Positions 32,656 to 44,089 of a stretch of 64,000 bases of DNA are shown here, in pieces. This DNA is from Candidatus Micrarchaeota archaeon. GTDB lineage: Archaea; Micrarchaeota; Micrarchaeia; Norongarragalinales; Norongarragalinaceae. The notes beneath the pieces are model-generated. The model ran no database searches and was not told where the DNA came from. It was given only the letters and a program-made list of their open reading frames with translations. The stretch spans positions 84,125-148,124 of the forward strand of contig JACPGT010000002.1 of the NCBI GenBank assembly GCA_016188965.1, read 5' to 3'. The translations under genes were made by a program, and so were the position numbers. Within the stretch, counting starts at the first letter, position 1, and the number at the start of each line of letters is the position of its first letter.

Positions 32656-32856
32656 GCCGCCCTCCGCTTCGGGCATTCTTTTGACGCCGGTTTTCCGGCA
32701 ACTTCCTTCTTTTCCAATCCTCTTTGCGTTCTTTTCTTTGACGCGGGCTTTCGTCCGGAAATGAAAACGCTTTAGAACGCTTCGTGACAAAAGGAAAGAA
32801 CTTCGAAAGCCAAGGTGTTTGCCGCCGATTGCAGGAATCGGCGGTTTCGCTCAATT

Positions 32857-32969
32857 GCCCCTGTAGCTCAGCCTGGTACAGACGCGGTCGCCTTTTTCTT
32901 TCCGAAAGAAAAATGCGGCCTGCCGAAAAAGAAACGAAGAAAAAGGAATAAACCAAGAGTAAACGAATT
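32857..32969 (+). repeat. 22-nt duplicate of the tRNA-Thr(GGU) 5' end plus hairpin element Y1
   Basis: 32857-32878 is identical to 32970-32991 (GCCCCTGTAGCTCAGCCTGGTA, and the preceding AATT is also shared). It is followed by GC-rich sequence, TTTTTCTTT-CCG-AAAGAAAAA, GC-rich sequence and an AAAAAGAAAC A-rich tail. Confidence 0.7.
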
Positions 32970-33079
32970 GCCCCTGTAGCTCAGCCTGGTAGAGCGCGTC
33001 CATGGTAACACGCGATGGTCGAAAGACTGCCGCGTGCCCATACAGGACGAGGTCGCGCGTTCAATTCGCGTCGGGGGCT
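32970..33079 (+). tRNA. tRNA-Thr(GGU) with 36-nt canonical (37/38) intron
   Basis: Acceptor GCCCCTG/CGGGGGC. Anticodon stem CGTCC/GGACG. Loop AT-GGT-A then intron 33008-33043 forming a relaxed BHB (ATGG/CCAT central helix, CACGCG/CGCGTG inner helix). T arm GCGCG-TTCAATT-CGCGT. Confidence 0.85.
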
Positions 33080-34319: not shown

Positions 34320-35483
34320 TCAAGCAATCTTCTGCATTGCTTTTTCCCAAGCCGCCGTGATGCTGACGACGTAGTTGCGCGTCTCGCCAAAGCGGTGGTT
34401 GCGGCAGGTGTTGGCGTTTTTGGTTTGAACTTCGCGGTCGTAGGGTCCGGCGTTGTAGGCGGCCAAGGCGCATTCGACGTTGCCGCTGGTCCTCAATTGG
34501 CGGGAGAGATATTCGACGCCGCCGCATATGTTGAAGTACGGGTCGAATACTTTGTCCTGTCCGATGCCCATGCCGGCCGCCGTCCCCGGAGTCATCTGGG
34601 TGTAGCCCTGCGCGTATTTCGATTCGGCGAACTGCCTCCCGCCGCTTTCCTGACCCAAGACCGATCGCAGCAGTGAATACGGAACGTGGTACAATTCGGA
34701 CGCCTTCTTGAAGATGCAGGTCGGATCCGCCGTGCGCCATGAGCGGCCGCGGTAAGTCGCCGTGCCCGTCTGGGGGCAGGCGGATTCAACCTGCTTGACG
34801 CAGGCAGTCACGCCGGCTAGCTGGACTTGCGTTGTCTGGAATTCCGCCCGCGTTCTGACATCGTACGCGCCCGCCGTGGTCACGGGCTTGGGCTGCGTTG
34901 GCGTCACGGTTGCTGGGGCGGTTTTGCAGATGGTTTCGACGTCGCGTTGTGCGATGCCGGCGCGGCGGAGTTCGAAGTAGAGGGAGGGAAATGCGTTGGC
35001 TTCGGATTTTCCGGTTTTGCCGATGGTTTCGCCTTTTTTGACGTCGCTGCCTTCGGTTGGGTTAGGTCCGGTTTGGAGGTAGCCGTATGTTGTTTCGACC
35101 GTCGGGTTTGTCGCGTGTCGGATGGTGACGTATCGTCCGTAACCTAGCAAGTCGGTTCTGCCCGAGGCGATGACTTTGCCTCCGCTTGCGGCCCGTACGT
35201 CTGTTCCTTCGGGTAGGCGGATTTCGACGCCTTGGCGGATGCGTTTTTCGTTGTTGAGGTTTTTGTATTCGGCTCCGTATGCGCCGGTGACCGGTGCGTT
35301 GACGGGGCAGGTGAAGCTGGTGGTGGAGTAGGTGGTGCCGGTGGGTCCGGGTTTGATTTGTTCTAGTGTGAATCCGGAGAATAGGCAGATGTGGTTGGAC
35401 GGGCAGGATGGAAGCGTGAGGGCGAAGATGAGGCTGGAGTAAAGCAGGACGATTAGGATTGCAATCCCCGCAATGCGCCGCAT
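34320..35483 (-). CDS. secreted murein hydrolase: degenerate M23/LytM-like module plus SLT lytic transglycosylase
   Basis: Signal/TM MRRIAGIAILIVLLYSSLIFA. LytM-like core GVEIRLPEGTDVRAA..GYGRYVTIRH..LYFELRR lacks HxH. C-terminal SLT motifs VLGQESGG, YTQMTPGTA, LAAYNAG. ATG 35483. Confidence 0.8.
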   Translation of the reverse strand: MRRIAGIAILIVLLYSSLIFALTLPSCPSNHICLFSGFTLEQIKPGPTGTTYSTTSFTCPVNAPVTGAYGAEYKNLNNEKRIRQGVEIRLPEGTDVRAASGGKVIASGRTDLLGYGRYVTIRHATNPTVETTYGYLQTGPNPTEGSDVKKGETIGKTGKSEANAFPSLYFELRRAGIAQRDVETICKTAPATVTPTQPKPVTTAGAYDVRTRAEFQTTQVQLAGVTACVKQVESACPQTGTATYRGRSWRTADPTCIFKKASELYHVPYSLLRSVLGQESGGRQFAESKYAQGYTQMTPGTAAGMGIGQDKVFDPYFNICGGVEYLSRQLRTSGNVECALAAYNAGPYDREVQTKNANTCRNHRFGETRNYVVSITAAWEKAMQKIA

Positions 35484-35538
35484 GCGCAAAGCAGGGAGCG
35501 GCACCTTAAAAGAGTTCTTTTGCTTTGGACGCAAACAA

Positions 35539-36597
35539 TCATGAGATGTACTTCGTGGGAAGCAAAAAGGCGCCGTAGTCGCCACCGGTGCGCAGTTCAA
35601 AATGCAGGTGGGCTCCCCGCGAGCTTCCACGGTCCGGATCGCTTGACGCTCCCCCGGTCAGACCCACTGCCTGCGATGTACTGACACGCTGGCCTTTGAT
35701 GACGTCGCGGCGTTTGAGATGGCCGTACCGTGCGAAGACCGGTTTTCCGTTCATGCGGCAGTCGCACTGGATCACGACTTCGCCGCCGTAACCGCCGACG
35801 TCCTCCGCCCAACTGGTGTGCACGACTCCATCGCATGCCGCCGTTGCCACGGTTCCGGAAGCCACTCCGACATCGTCCCCTTTATGGTACCGGTAGCCTC
35901 CTGAACCCGTGGGCCGCAACTCCCCGGCGTGACTTCCCACCAAGGCCGGATAGTTGCCCGGCACCGGAGACTTGAAGTGGCAAGCGCCGGTCTGGGGCAG
36001 CAATGCAGCGGCCGGCGGAGCCGTGGCCTTGGTTTTGCAGATGTTTTCGACGTCGCGCTGCGCGATGCCGCCGCGGCGCAACTCAAAATAAAACGAAGGA
36101 AACGCGTTGGCTTCGGATTTTCCGGTTTTGCCGATGACTTCGCCTTTTTTGACATCGGTGCCTTCGACTGGGTTGGGGCCGGTCTGAAGATACCCATACG
36201 TCGTTTCGACCGTCGGGTTCGTCGCGTGGCGGATGGTGACGTACCGGCCGTAGCCGAGTAGGTCGGTTCTGCCGGAGGCGATGATTTTTCCGCTGGCCGC
36301 TGCTCGTACGTCTGTGCCTTCTGGTAGGCGGATTTCGACGCCTTGCCGCACCCGCTTCTCGCCATTGAGATTGACATATTCGCCGCCGTATGCGCCGGTG
36401 ACGGGTGCGTTGACGGGGCAGGTGAAGCTGGTGGTGGAGTAGGGGGTGCCGGTGGGTGTGGGTTTGATGGGTTCGAGGGTGATTCCGGAGAAGAGGCAGA
36501 CGTGGTTGCCCGGACACGACGGCAAGGTTAATGCCGATGCGGCGGCTGCCGAAAAAACCAAAGCGAATACAGCCGCCAGTACGGCGCGGTTTTCCAT
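35539..36597 (-). CDS. secreted murein hydrolase: degenerate M23/LytM-like module plus catalytic M23 peptidase
   Basis: The N-terminal ~190 aa are nearly collinear with 34320-35483. The C-terminal module has YHKGDDVGV (HxxxD) and GAHLHFELR (HxH). Confidence 0.8.
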   Translation of the reverse strand: MENRAVLAAVFALVFSAAAASALTLPSCPGNHVCLFSGITLEPIKPTPTGTPYSTTSFTCPVNAPVTGAYGGEYVNLNGEKRVRQGVEIRLPEGTDVRAAASGKIIASGRTDLLGYGRYVTIRHATNPTVETTYGYLQTGPNPVEGTDVKKGEVIGKTGKSEANAFPSFYFELRRGGIAQRDVENICKTKATAPPAAALLPQTGACHFKSPVPGNYPALVGSHAGELRPTGSGGYRYHKGDDVGVASGTVATAACDGVVHTSWAEDVGGYGGEVVIQCDCRMNGKPVFARYGHLKRRDVIKGQRVSTSQAVGLTGGASSDPDRGSSRGAHLHFELRTGGDYGAFLLPTKYIS

Positions 36598-36620: not shown

Positions 36621-37352
36621 TTAAGTGCCTTTCGAAACCGGCATGGCGGAAACCGGCGAATGCCCAGCACGAGGTTTGCGCAAGAAACTCAAATACGCCG
36701 TGTGCAGTAACCCCGAATTCTCTGGACGGAATCCCCGCTCGCGCACGAGCATGGGCCGCACGATGACTTCGATCGTCTCGCCTTGCTCAAAACCCGCGGC
36801 AAGAGCCGCCTTGACGAACGTCTGCACTTGCTCGGCATGCGGCAAGTAACCCGCGCAGAAACCCCCGGCTTTCAGCGAAGAAAAGGCATGCGGCAACGCC
36901 AACGACGAGTCGCCCATGTCCAGCGTGACCAAATCGACGTCTTTTTCATCGAAGCCTTCGGCAATGACGTCCCGGAGGCTGACCCGCACGACGGAATCCA
37001 GGCCTGCTTTCTTGACGTTGGCTTCGGTTAGCTTTTGGAATTCCTCCCGCTTCTCGTACGAAAAGACCTTTCCTGACGGCGCCACGATGGAACCCAGATA
37101 GCAGGACAGGAACCCCGAGCCGGCGCCGCAATCGATCACCCGGTCGCCGGACTGCAAGCCGGTCAACGCCGAAATCATGGCGGCGTCTTTCAGCAAAATG
37201 ACTTGCGGCCCGCGGCGGAGCTTCTTCCAGATGGACGGGTTGAACATGATGGCGTTGATGTCCCGCCGGCTTTGTAAAGCTTGCCTTCCTGCATCAGCAA
37301 GGCCCAAGGAAAACGTTTTAGAACGCATGGGCTCAATAAAAAAGTCCGTCAT
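36621..37352 (-). CDS. trmI: tRNA (adenine-N1)-methyltransferase TrmI/Gcd14 family
   Basis: GPQVILLKDAAMISALTGLQSGDRVIDCGAGSGFLSCYL SAM motif I and an overall length of about 243 aa. ATG 37352 chosen because the longer ORF runs into the tRNA-fragment repeat. Confidence 0.75.
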   Translation of the reverse strand: MTDFFIEPMRSKTFSLGLADAGRQALQSRRDINAIMFNPSIWKKLRRGPQVILLKDAAMISALTGLQSGDRVIDCGAGSGFLSCYLGSIVAPSGKVFSYEKREEFQKLTEANVKKAGLDSVVRVSLRDVIAEGFDEKDVDLVTLDMGDSSLALPHAFSSLKAGGFCAGYLPHAEQVQTFVKAALAAGFEQGETIEVIVRPMLVRERGFRPENSGLLHTAYLSFLRKPRAGHSPVSAMPVSKGT

Positions 37353-37465: not shown

Positions 37466-37603
37466 GCCTCGGTAGCTCAGACGAGCCCATCTTTTCTTTG
37501 CGAAAGAAAAGCTAGGCGCCCCAAAAGAAACAACAAGAAAAGCCGGATAAAGGAAAAACGAAGCTTCAAAAACAGCGCACAACCAAAAAAGCAATGCAAA
37601 ATT
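37466..37603 (+). repeat. 15-nt duplicate of the tRNA-Thr(CGU) 5' end plus hairpin element Y2
   Basis: 37466-37480 is identical to 37604-37618 (GCCTCGGTAGCTCAG). It is followed by GAGCCCAT-CTTTTCTTT-GCG-AAAGAAAAG-CTAGGCGCCCC-AAAAGAAAC.., which shares 14-nt and 28-nt identical blocks with the tRNA-Leu(UAA) intron. Confidence 0.7.
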
Positions 37604-37675
37604 GCCTCGGTAGCTCAGCGGTAGAGCACCTGTTTCGTAAACAGGGGGTCACGAGTTCGATCCTCGTCCGGGGCT
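37604..37675 (+). tRNA. tRNA-Thr(CGU), intronless
   Basis: GCCTCGG-TA-GCTC-AGCGGTA-GAGC-A-CCTGT-TTCGTAA-ACAGG-GGGTC-ACGAG-TTCGATC-CTCGT-CCGGGGC-T cloverleaf. Confidence 0.9.
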
Positions 37676-43803: not shown

Positions 43804-43986
43804 GGAGGAGTGTCCTGAGTCTGGCCAAAAGGGCAGGACTTAAGAGCCGCCCATCTTTTCTTTTTGATAAAAAGAAAAGCTAGGCGCCCCAAAAGAAAAA
43901 CCGTCTAGCGCGCGAATCATACAGCTTCAGCGGCTAAGTCATCCTGTGGCTTTGTGCCTTCGGGGGTTCAAATCCCCCCTCCTCCA
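43804..43986 (+). tRNA. tRNA-Leu(UAA) with 96-nt canonical (37/38) intron carrying hairpin element Y3
   Basis: Acceptor GGAGGAG/CTCCTCC+A. Anticodon stem CAGGA/TCCTG, loop CT-TAA-G. Intron 43845-43940 forms a strict hBHBh' (central CTTA/TAAG, bulges AGA and TCA, inner GCCGC/GCGGC). Long variable arm. T arm GGGGG-TTCAAAT-CCCCC. Mature length 87 nt. Confidence 0.88.
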
Positions 43987-44066
43987 CTTTTGATTCGTAA
44001 GACTAAACTCGGGGGTTCGGGGTAACGTAGGACTATAGGGGGCGGAGCCCCCTGTGGTCCCGCGGC

Positions 44067-44089
44067 GGGTTCAAATCCCCCCTCCTCCA
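44067..44089 (+). repeat. 23-nt duplicate of the tRNA-Leu(UAA) 3' end
   Basis: GGGTTCAAATCCCCCCTCCTCCA at 44067-44089 is identical to 43964-43986. No matching 5' acceptor strand lies between the copies. Confidence 0.75.

Follow-up and report, generated by a model that had tools for sequence, protein, structure and literature searches.

The DNA analysed here, which we call the window, is a stretch of 64 kb from contig JACPGT010000002.1 of a Candidatus Micrarchaeota archaeon (assembly GCA_016188965.1), and all coordinates below are positions in it. The window encodes a tRNA-Thr(GGU) gene whose 5' end is present twice. The 22-mer GCCCCTGTAGCTCAGCCTGGTA occurs there in two exact copies, at 32857-32878 and at 32970-32991, and the AATT in front of each copy is doubled as well, which brings the repeat identity to 26/26. 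No third copy was found in the window when up to 3 mismatches were allowed, and 100 shuffles gave 0 matches.

The downstream copy is the start of a complete gene. ARAGORN in its intron mode recovers a tRNA at 32970-33079 that has a cloverleaf, an anticodon and a 36-nt intron (33008-33043) at the canonical position 37/38, and the intron is framed by a motif of the bulge-helix-bulge type (BHB, which marks splice sites in archaea) with an outer helix A of 5 bp and an inner helix B of 6 bp, as an archaeal intron-containing tRNA gene should have. Default ARAGORN and the Rfam gathering search miss this gene and report only the tRNA-Thr(CGU) gene at 37604-37675. The upstream copy, which we call the stub, contains the acceptor 5' strand, the D-stem 5' strand and the D-loop. 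It does not qualify as a tRNA gene, as only positions 1-21 and about 40-50 of a tRNA are present in 32857-32892; neither ARAGORN nor Rfam made a call on the stub, and no T-arm motif was found near it apart from those of the real tRNAs. The second of these two pieces lies in the junction that follows the stub, where GACGCGGTCGC matches the tRNA's own GACGAGGTCGC (positions ~40-50) at 10/11 letters; 0.9% of the shuffles are as good (p~0.009).

The two repeats are separated by 87 nt. This spacer holds the hairpin TTTTTCTTT-CCG-AAAGAAAAA at 32893-32913, a perfect 9-bp stem, followed by a GC-rich linker and an A-rich tail with an AATAAA at 32947-32952, 18-23 nt ahead of the tRNA. The initial annotation had described the copied 5' end with its doubled AATT, the downstream copy as the true start of the tRNA, the A/T hairpin with its CCG loop, the nearby AATAAA and the resemblance of the sequence after the copy to a later part of the tRNA, and our analysis confirms each of them. 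It had not seen that the A-rich tail opens with an exact mirror copy of the purine arm of the hairpin, or that the element is one of a widely distributed family.

Three tRNA genes with a mirror-repeat module

The arrangement is not unique to the tRNA-Thr(GGU) gene, since re-inspection of the tRNA-Thr(CGU) locus revealed the same layout of stub and hairpin. There the first 15 nt of the tRNA, GCCTCGGTAGCTCAG, are repeated upstream at 15/15 and are followed by the hairpin CTTTTCTTT-GCG-AAAGAAAAG at 37491-37511, a GC block and an A-rich tail. Either stub agrees with the tRNA of its own locus and not with the other stub, as seen in GCCCCTG (GGU) and GCCTCGG (CGU). The motif GAAAACG(C/T)TTTAGAACGC has only two sites in the whole window (32763 and 37309), both upstream of the tRNA-Thr loci, and the leader contexts of the two loci are homologous. 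We take the two loci to be paralogues because they share the upstream motif and the homologous leaders, and their stub-module layout was probably inherited from one ancestral locus.

All three tRNA genes of the window carry a structured element of the same design, which we call the Y module. The copies of the GGU locus, the CGU locus and the tRNA-Leu intron are named W1, W2 and W3, respectively. The module consists of a pyrimidine arm Y, a loop, a purine arm R, a linker and a further run of purines, R', which mirrors R exactly, and the linker between R and R' is GC-rich and 10-12 nt long in all three copies. The core of W2 is almost identical to that of W3, and both share GCCCATC...CTAGGCGCCCC AAAAGAAA. 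The module has T-runs on both strands. Table 1 lists the features of the three loci.

Table 1. Features of the tRNA-Thr(GGU), tRNA-Thr(CGU) and tRNA-Leu(UAA) loci in the window
Feature	Position	Strand	Sequence and remarks
Upstream motif, BRE/TATA-like (BRE, transcription factor B recognition element)	32763..32781	+	GAAAACGCTTTAGAACGC; upstream of the stub; promoter role putative
Leader hairpin	32822..32844	+	CCGCCGATT-GCAGG-AATCGGCGG, then TTTCGCTCAATT; read from the sequence
Stub	32853..32878	+	AATT + 22 nt, equal to the tRNA-Thr(GGU) 5' end; exact repeat
Junction	32879..32892	+	CAGACGCGGTCGCC; remnant of tRNA ~40-50, into the 5' strand of the hairpin's lower stem
W1 Y module	32893..32934	+	Pattern and hairpin scans
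W1 Y arm	32893-32901	+	TTTTTCTTT, then loop CCG
W1 R arm	32905-32913	+	AAAGAAAAA
W1 linker	after R arm	+	TGCGGCCTGCCG; GCGGCC pairs with GGTCGC at 32887-32892
W1 mirror run R'	32926-32934	+	AAAAAGAAA
Tail of the GGU locus	32935..32969	+	BRE/TATA-like block (CGAAG AAAAAGGAAT) and conserved GAGTAAACGAATT abutting the tRNA; promoter role putative
tRNA-Thr(GGU)	32970..33079	+	Exons 32970-33007 and 33044-33079; ARAGORN intron mode
Upstream motif, second copy	37309..37327	+	GAAAACGTTTTAGAACGC; repeat family D8
CGU stub	37466..37480	+	GCCTCGGTAGCTCAG, first 15 nt of tRNA-Thr(CGU); 15/15
W2 Y module	37485..37530	+	GCCCAT C-TTTTCTTT-GCG-AAAGAAAA-G CTAGGCGCCCC AAAAGAAA
Tail of the CGU locus	37531..37603	+	ACGAAGCTTCAAAAAC (BRE/TATA-like) at about -45 to -31; promoter role putative
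tRNA-Thr(CGU)	37604..37675	+	Intronless; ARAGORN and Rfam, 66.8 bits
tRNA-Leu(UAA)	43804..43986	+	Read from the sequence; BHB and T-arm found
tRNA-Leu intron	about 43845-43940	+	Canonical, ~96 nt; carries W3
W3 Y module	43855-43879, R' 43891-43900	+	Pyrimidine/purine hairpin scan

The tRNA-Leu(UAA) gene was overlooked by default ARAGORN, by intron-mode ARAGORN and by the Rfam gathering search. Rfam 15 at E<=1 gave no match at 32857-32940, 37466-37540 and 43850-43900 except for weak tmRNA-like matches at tRNA-Leu, which arise because the acceptor and the T-arm of that gene are distant from each other. We also observed that the last 23 nt of tRNA-Leu (GGGTTCAAATCCCCCCTCCTCCA, 43964-43986) recur ~100 nt downstream at 44067-44089. 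Within the spacer of this repeat (43987-44066) lies a structured element "Z" (GGGGGTTCGGGGTAACGTAGGACTATAGGGGG...CCCCCTGTGGTCCC, about 44010-44066). Z with a 15-20-nt duplicate of the tRNA 3' end also follows tRNA-Thr(GGU) in two related genomes, labelled L127 and L131 (L-numbers denote our comparison loci and genomes), and a Z-like sequence with no clear duplicate follows it in L147.

The sequence of the module varies between orthologous loci while the relation among Y, R and R' is preserved (Table 2). The tRNA-Leu orthologue of L128 also has the module in its intron, with a different sequence, and at the CGU locus of L128 the set is flipped relative to that of the window. We considered R' as an alternative pairing partner of Y and rejected it, as R' mirrors R and a direct copy would be expected in that case.

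Table 2. Covariation of the pyrimidine arm and the two mirrored purine runs; R and R' of W1, W2 and W3 are mirror pairs
Locus	Genome	Y	R	R'
tRNA-Thr(GGU)	Window (W1)	TTTTTCTTT	AAAGAAAAA	AAAAAGAAA
tRNA-Thr(GGU)	L125	TTTTTCTTTT	AAAAGAAAAA	AAAAAGAAAA
tRNA-Thr(GGU)	L131	TTTTCTTTT	AAAAGAAAA	AAAAGAAAA
tRNA-Thr(CGU)	Window (W2)	TTTTCTTT	AAAGAAAA	AAAAGAAA
tRNA-Thr(CGU)	L128	TTTCTTTT	AAAAGAAA	AAAGAAAA
tRNA-Leu intron	Window (W3)	CTTTTCTTTTT	AAAAAGAAAAG	AAAAGAAAAA
tRNA-Leu intron, mirror pair	Window (W3)		AAAAAGAAAA	AAAAGAAAAA
tRNA-Leu intron	L128	TTTCTTTCTT	AAGAAAGAAA	AAAGAAAGAA

The three-way covariation points to a three-stranded structure or some other constraint. In textbooks, fold-back triplexes are built from a homopurine mirror repeat together with the pyrimidine arm that complements it. 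The module has a homopurine/homopyrimidine tract with an exact mirror on the same strand, as H-DNA-type motifs do, with the order Y-loop-R-loop-R' along one strand and the order Y''-Y-loop-R along the opposite one. The antiparallel, like-with-like alignment of R' to R would suit a purine-motif fold-back triplex, and the complementary strand would have the U.A-U / C+.G-C design of the pyrimidine motif. The module differs from known H-DNA mirror repeats in that its tracts are short (8-15 nt), set in a GC clamp, associated with tRNAs and biased in orientation; the geometry would be strained in the compact copies, and the triplex is a prediction from sequence symmetry. The folding tools we used model Watson-Crick and wobble pairs only. 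With them, hairpins are predicted at the three loci, but the folding of the two Thr leaders does not surpass that of shuffled sequences (z = -0.7 and +0.4).

Relatives with and without the unit

The stub and the module are conserved as a unit in two clades of relatives. We obtained the syntenic loci through DsbA homologues, plus one pattern match in metagenomes; the metagenome scan for the stub/junction pattern returned one contig only (L131). The tRNA-Thr(GGU) gene has DsbA, a small open reading frame, M23 peptidases and GCD14 as neighbours, and the ribosomal proteins L3 and L4 are also encoded in the window. These two proteins, the kind of intron seen in tRNA-Thr(GGU) and the DsbA homologues, which are named Micrarchaeota, place the window among the Micrarchaeota of the DPANN archaea. 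We defined the clades by L3/L4 and DsbA identities. Clade A comprises the window, L121, L125 and L127, and L131 was placed in it solely because its L3 and L4 are ~85% identical to those of the window. Clade B, with ~71-76% L3/L4 identity to clade A, comprises L128, L149 and L147.

The GGU unit is present in the window, L125, L131 and L128 with the same junction, GGTA followed by CAGRCGCG, in which the single position R varies between A and G. An assembly artefact is excluded by the recurrence of the arrangement in four independent assemblies, the other three being L125, L131 and L128. In the alignment of the four, the stub, junction, hairpin and R' are conserved, in contrast to the tail and the upstream leader. 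Change in the stub is as slow as in the tRNA over a ribosomal-protein divergence of ~25-30%, across which the flanking non-coding DNA is scrambled, and the stub changes together with its own tRNA: both copies read GCCCCTG in the window and GCCTCCG in L128. The two L128 copies differ at a single place, where the upstream one has CCGGGTA instead of the conserved CCTGGTA.

Comparison of syntenic loci for empty sites, which the initial annotation had proposed, found them in L127 and L147. Both Thr loci of L127 and the GGU locus of L147 have no element, and a leader with an equivalent hairpin and GCTCAA(AA/TC) abuts the intact tRNA. The leader hairpin with GCTCAA(AA/TC) also precedes the stub in L131, and GCTCAAAA precedes the CGU stub of the window as it does at the element-free locus of L127. 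Since the leaders of L127 and L147 run straight into the tRNA, the stub occupies the place of the original tRNA start. In L121 the element is absent from the GGU locus and the tRNA is inverted. L149 no longer has the stub and its hairpin is degraded, but it keeps the complete tRNA with a tail block GAAAAGGTTTGAAAACCCG (at about -35) that is 100% identical to that of L128. A single origin before the split of the clades is the simplest history; three or more clean losses and a partial one would have come after it. The unit is thus both ancient and dispensable. Inverted tRNA-Thr genes were observed in relatives that have no stub and module, i.e. GGU in L121 (8835-8944) and CGU in L127 (8976-9049), which hints that loss of the unit and local inversion may be linked.

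The initial annotation had suggested that the element may supply the promoter of the tRNA, and this stands in part. The AATAAA is specific to the lineage of the window and is not conserved in L125, L131 or L128. The tail does have conserved BRE/TATA-like blocks at about -35 to -22, a distance that suits a promoter, namely CGAAG + AAAAAGGAA in clade A and GGTTTGAAAAC in clade B; CGAAGAAAAAGGAA and GAGTAAACGAAT of the tail are conserved in W1, L125 and L131, and a block ACGAAG(A/C)TTCAAAAAC is common to the CGU tails of the window and L128. A sigma-70 promoter scan, which uses a bacterial model not suited to an archaeon, gave no match.

Across 6 genomes, the upstream motif was found ahead of 7 tRNA-Thr loci; the interval between it and the first tRNA-like 5' end is variable (36-172 nt), which suggests either long leaders or another small transcript in between. 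Its consensus is GAAAAC(G/C)(C/T)TTTAGAA(C/G) in the window, L125, L127, L128, L131 and L147. A T-run / GC hairpin / A-run structure lies directly before the motif in the window and L128. In Logan, short-read contigs of close relatives end just after perfect leader hairpins (L001, whose end corresponds to window position 32848, L124 and L126). Assemblies of the region thus tend to break just before the stub, so such loci may be hidden in metagenomes.

The module outside this clade

Y modules are found in the discarded parts of pre-tRNAs (introns, leaders and trailers) and at gene boundaries, mostly in DPANN archaea. A scan of representative genomes for the hairpin core returned at least 119 stretches, many of them in DPANN phyla. 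The mirror run accompanies the hairpin in 38 of 47 archaeal and 13 of 79 bacterial matches; this and the following counts of the section are among the matches listed. A general hairpin finder located the exact mirror on the expected side of 35 of the 44 asymmetric archaeal hairpins, on the wrong side of one, and a direct copy in its stead at two. Hairpins outside the search pattern behave alike (8/9 with the mirror). An exact mirror run lies within 40 nt of 42 asymmetric cores, and among the archaeal loci, which are mostly DPANN, ~80% of these hairpins are flanked by one on one side.

Many of the modules are associated with tRNA genes. We found a T-arm motif within a few hundred nt of 26 of the 47 modules, in the sense orientation for 22 and in the antisense orientation only for 4. 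The module occurs in canonical tRNA introns (Trp in L117, Tyr in L081, Ser in L088, Cys in L018, L025 and L063), in T-loop insertions at ~59/60 (L104, L120, L032, L033, L073 and L080), in a D-loop insertion (L070), directly 3' of tRNA-His (L040 and L026), and at the starts or ends of protein genes. Three of the T-loop copies (L032, L104 and L120) are near-identical and come from one metagenome-assembled genome, LacPavin. We spliced the candidate T-loop and D-loop insertions in silico and reran ARAGORN, a procedure that is overly permissive as a discriminator. The T-loop position ~59/60 is already known as an intron position in Micrarchaeota tRNAs (PMC3239211).

Many modules are flanked by direct duplications of a gene end (L064, L096, L109, L086, L024, L035, L049 and L106). 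Flanking repeats scoring at least 15 were found at 6 of 24 archaeal modules, at 1 of 33 bacterial hairpins and at 0 of 215 random archaeal positions. An independent case is the tRNA-Glu of the Altiarchaeota locus L064, which has the same order of parts: a stub (18/19), a hairpin, TATTAAAT and the tRNA. In L086 (620-760), a gene that we read as elongation factor aEF-1beta has its final 29 nt present twice, as an exact (29/29) repeat around a 54-nt module. The next 10 nt have 6 differences, all of them synonymous, and both copies end in TLL-stop, so that it looks as if one of the gene ends had been imported from a diverged homologue.

The family is not strictly archaeal, as the design also appears in viral contigs and in bacteria including the candidate phyla radiation. 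The module is present in 13 stretches of IMG/VR viral contigs (L133-L145). The hairpin and mirror run, often with a 1-nt linker after the GC clamp, were seen in viral contigs and in the bacterial loci L005, L023, L036, L059, L066, L089 and L101.

The module has to be set beside the non-canonical introns of tRNAs in the archaeal Richmond Mine acidophilic nanoorganisms (ARMAN), which belong to the same lineage (PMC3239211). Modules recur at positions 37/38, in the T-loop at ~59/60 and in the D-loop, and processing removes both kinds of sequence; at the two Thr loci, in contrast, the module lies in the 5' leader and has no BHB. We searched the literature for the module and for the gene-end duplications and found no description. 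Intron transposition among tRNAs was reportedly described for Thermoproteales by Fujishima in 2010. We know of no account of flanking gene-end duplications or of a mirror-repeat architecture for tRNA introns.

Origin of the stub and its possible meaning

We propose with moderate confidence that the locus is made up of an old promoter, a leader, a tRNA stub, the Y module, a second promoter-like block and the complete tRNA-Thr gene, and that the stub is the collapsed remnant of a tRNA-Thr. The initial annotation had offered four explanations, i.e. an att-like scar, a collapsed tRNA pseudogene, a small mobile element with a long target duplication and an alternative or split 5' exon. The collapsed pseudogene appears to be the best supported of them: positions 1-21 are followed by the partial match to ~40-50, and this remnant sits where the tRNA starts in element-free relatives.

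According to this proposal, the stub would be the non-functional remainder of an older tRNA-Thr copy at the original tRNA start, and the complete downstream gene would make the tRNA, its transcription being driven by the BRE/TATA-like block of the tail, reaching it as read-through that starts at the old promoter, or arising in both ways. The 5' end of this tRNA would be fixed by RNase P and the 36-nt intron taken out by the splicing endonuclease, and no stub sequence would enter the mature tRNA. Short-tract gene conversion between the direct copies is the most likely process to keep the stub matched to the tRNA 5' end; the doubled AATT is ambiguous as evidence for it because L147 has CAATC at the same place. 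The several precise losses of the unit could be explained by recombination between the same direct repeats. The Y module may separate the transcription unit of the stub from the tRNA's own promoter.

Known tRNA pseudogenes of the partial or collapsed kind lie beside functional tRNA genes and arise by tandem duplication with later decay. Like them, the upstream piece derives from a tRNA, is unable to fold as one and is placed directly before an intact paralogue. It differs from them in staying identical to the 5' end of the live gene over deep divergence and changing with that gene, in being fused to a conserved structured module and in retaining the original upstream motif.

Several points weigh against the collapse reading. 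The CGU junction has no significant similarity to a tRNA. The use of the promoters, the termination at the T-run and the processing by RNase P are all predictions. The module is also found within tRNA introns in the sense orientation; RNA polymerase has to pass it there, and a role as an efficient terminator or insulator is doubtful for this reason. The slow evolution of the stub fits direct selection on the stub equally well as gene conversion. Finally, compact copies of the module have a paired lower stem between R and R', so that the stem and a triplex would be alternatives rather than coexist.

A possible though less probable alternative is that the Y module is, or once was, a miniature non-autonomous insertion element which duplicates 15-40 nt of its target, so that the stub would be the left copy of the target. 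The element would either create an unusually long target-site duplication or bring the repeat along as an att-like core, and inserts would persist only close to the ends of genes, where a complete copy of the gene is left. This hypothesis accounts best for the recurrent gene-end duplications elsewhere and for the pattern of L086. The repeats are exact in L086, ~40 nt long at the protein gene starts of L024 and L035, at tRNA 3' ends in L096 and L109, and at a tRNA 5' end in L064; their excess at archaeal modules over bacterial hairpins and random positions, the occurrence of the module in viral contigs and the apparently imported gene end of L086, whose differences beyond the core are synonymous only, are all in its favour. 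Copies within a genome share their flanks (W2/W3, the three LacPavin T-loop copies and L086), and the polarity is steady, the spacer next to the hairpin being short and the tail that adjoins the mirror run longer.

The resemblance to miniature inverted-repeat transposable elements (MITEs) and repetitive extragenic palindromic (REP)-type hairpins is partial. The module is likewise ~50 nt long, non-coding, hairpin-forming and present in several copies per genome at intergenic or tolerated positions, with three modules in the 64 kb analysed here. Unlike MITEs, it has no terminal inverted repeats, as CAGACGCG... at one end of the insert has no inverted counterpart in ...GTAAACG at the other, and no fixed short duplication, as the lengths vary from 7 to ~42 nt. 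No transposase or integrase is associated with it, and orthologous copies have been stable over deep divergence, which is not expected of an active mobile element. Two further details disagree with simple target duplication: the W1 junction contains the extra tRNA sequence of positions ~40-50, and in L128 the duplicated unit appears to take in the promoter region (at least 57 nt). The small element or att-like scar suggested in the initial annotation may be the origin, as similar modules elsewhere are flanked by 15-42-nt gene-end duplications; the absence of an integrase or other mobile DNA and the mere 87 nt of spacer speak against it here. We ruled out retrotransposition with an A-rich tail, as the apparently recent insert of L086 has no A tail.

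It is unlikely that the stub and the module are transcribed into a functional small RNA, with RNase P cutting both leader ends and selection keeping the stub identical to the tRNA. In such an RNA the stub could pair with the 3' acceptor strand and the D-stem of the tRNA, and the hairpin, mirror run and A-rich tail would stabilise the molecule. The 3' triple helix of MALAT1 and MEN-beta lies just upstream of a tRNA-like structure that is cleaved by RNase P. Our locus is similar in that a fold-back element rich in U and A, together with an A-rich tract, immediately precedes a predicted RNase P site; it differs in its reversed strand composition, its archaeal origin and the presence of the module in introns where no RNase P site follows. 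The conservation of stub, junction, hairpin and mirror run as a block amid changing non-coding DNA would suit a functional RNA, as would the way in which the stub follows the compensatory acceptor-stem changes of its own tRNA, the strongly conserved promoter-like motif upstream, the decay of the hairpin in L149 once the stub was lost, and the bias of the modules towards the sense strand of tRNAs. However, the clean losses in L121, L127 and L147 mean that the RNA would not be essential. The hairpin that stub positions 5-9 could form with the junction is not kept by covariation in L128, and the sense strand would offer a single U-rich strand with two A-rich ones, a composition opposite to that of the known stabilising U.A-U helices. 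Semerad and Maher are said to have reported in 1994 that RNA strands are excluded from purine-motif triplexes.

We consider it very unlikely that the locus is the scar of a large integrated virus or plasmid with its attachment site at the 5' end of tRNA-Thr, the 22-26-nt repeats being attL and attR and the 87 nt a residue. Direct repeats of a tRNA end are the classic mark of integrase-mediated insertion in archaea, elements with SSV- and pNOB8-type integrases leave attL/attR duplications at archaeal tRNA genes, and the att cores of archaeal tyrosine integrases are of similar length. The two Thr loci have such repeats (26/26 for GGU and 15/15 for CGU), and precisely empty sites exist in relatives, as expected where 15-30-nt repeats of a tRNA end bracket foreign sequence. 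But here it is the 5' end that is duplicated, the repeats enclose only 87-123 nt, and no integrase or mobile-element gene lies between or beside them. The spacer is the same module that is found inside tRNA introns, and it has been inherited vertically with an identical junction in two clades and in a similar form at the paralogous locus; repeated identical collapses of an integrated element are implausible. A search of IMG/VR for a matching attP in a virus or plasmid found none, and the single match of the 22-mer in a viral contig is an unrelated tRNA at the contig end.

The weakest explanation, and a highly improbable one, is that the upstream copy is the true 5' exon, alternative or split, and that the 113 nt up to 32991 form a non-canonical D-loop intron. 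Micrarchaeota tRNAs do carry non-canonical introns and their endonuclease cuts relaxed motifs (PMC3239211), and Y modules are present in D-loop and T-loop insertions of other DPANN tRNAs (L070, L104 and L120). Against this, our scanner, which considered both possible arrangements, allowed an offset of one nucleotide and required two 3-nt bulges, found no BHB linking the same position of the two copies in W1, L125, L131 or L128 while it recovered the real introns; the relaxed one-bulge motif was not searched exhaustively. Direct repeats alone should not be able to form a symmetric BHB. The upstream exon is also dispensable, as L149 has an intact tRNA with the downstream copy only and L127 and L147 have no duplication, and the lone difference between the L128 copies falls in the upstream one. 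No trans-splicing partner was found in the window, where the matches to the junction CAGACGCGGTCGCC are at chance level. A BHB candidate that would remove the leader, stub and Y module (118 nt) is present in W1 and L131 and not in L125; it rests on G-U pairs and we regard it as a false positive.

Apart from the tRNA loci, the window has two adjacent paralogous genes for secreted M23 peptidases (34320-35630 and 35539-36597), one with an SLT lytic transglycosylase domain, that share a 300-nt repeat of 84% identity. These are cell-wall-degrading enzymes, which might be of use to a DPANN archaeon that lives attached to a host.

Partial duplications of tRNAs, like repeats linked to them, are already known in kind. 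As far as we found in the literature searched, four aspects are new: a long-lived stub that co-evolves with its gene, its fusion to a module with covarying mirror runs, the recurrence of this module in discarded pre-tRNA parts in DPANN phyla, and the gene-end duplications. The covariation of Y, R and R' is a rare signal and could define a new motif class. There is also a practical side: of the three tRNA genes in the window, two escaped the default tRNA finders, and stubs of this kind can pass for att sites.

The origin of interrupted, split and permuted archaeal tRNA genes has been an open question since Nanoarchaeum, and Micrarchaeota are an extreme case. The locus joins a partial duplication of a tRNA end, a structured module that also occurs in tRNA introns, and repeated clean loss, and hypotheses on intron origin thereby become testable by comparative genomics and RNA-seq. 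We speculate, and regard it as rather doubtful, that the Y module represents an undescribed class of fold-back, triplex-capable elements, enriched in DPANN, which enter or rearrange gene ends with a target duplication of 15-40 nt. If so, the outcome would depend on which copy decays: a harmless leader or trailer stub as in this locus, a new T-loop or D-loop intron, or eventually a gene that can be split. This would be a concrete route at the DNA level to the gain of archaeal tRNA introns and to tRNA genes in pieces.

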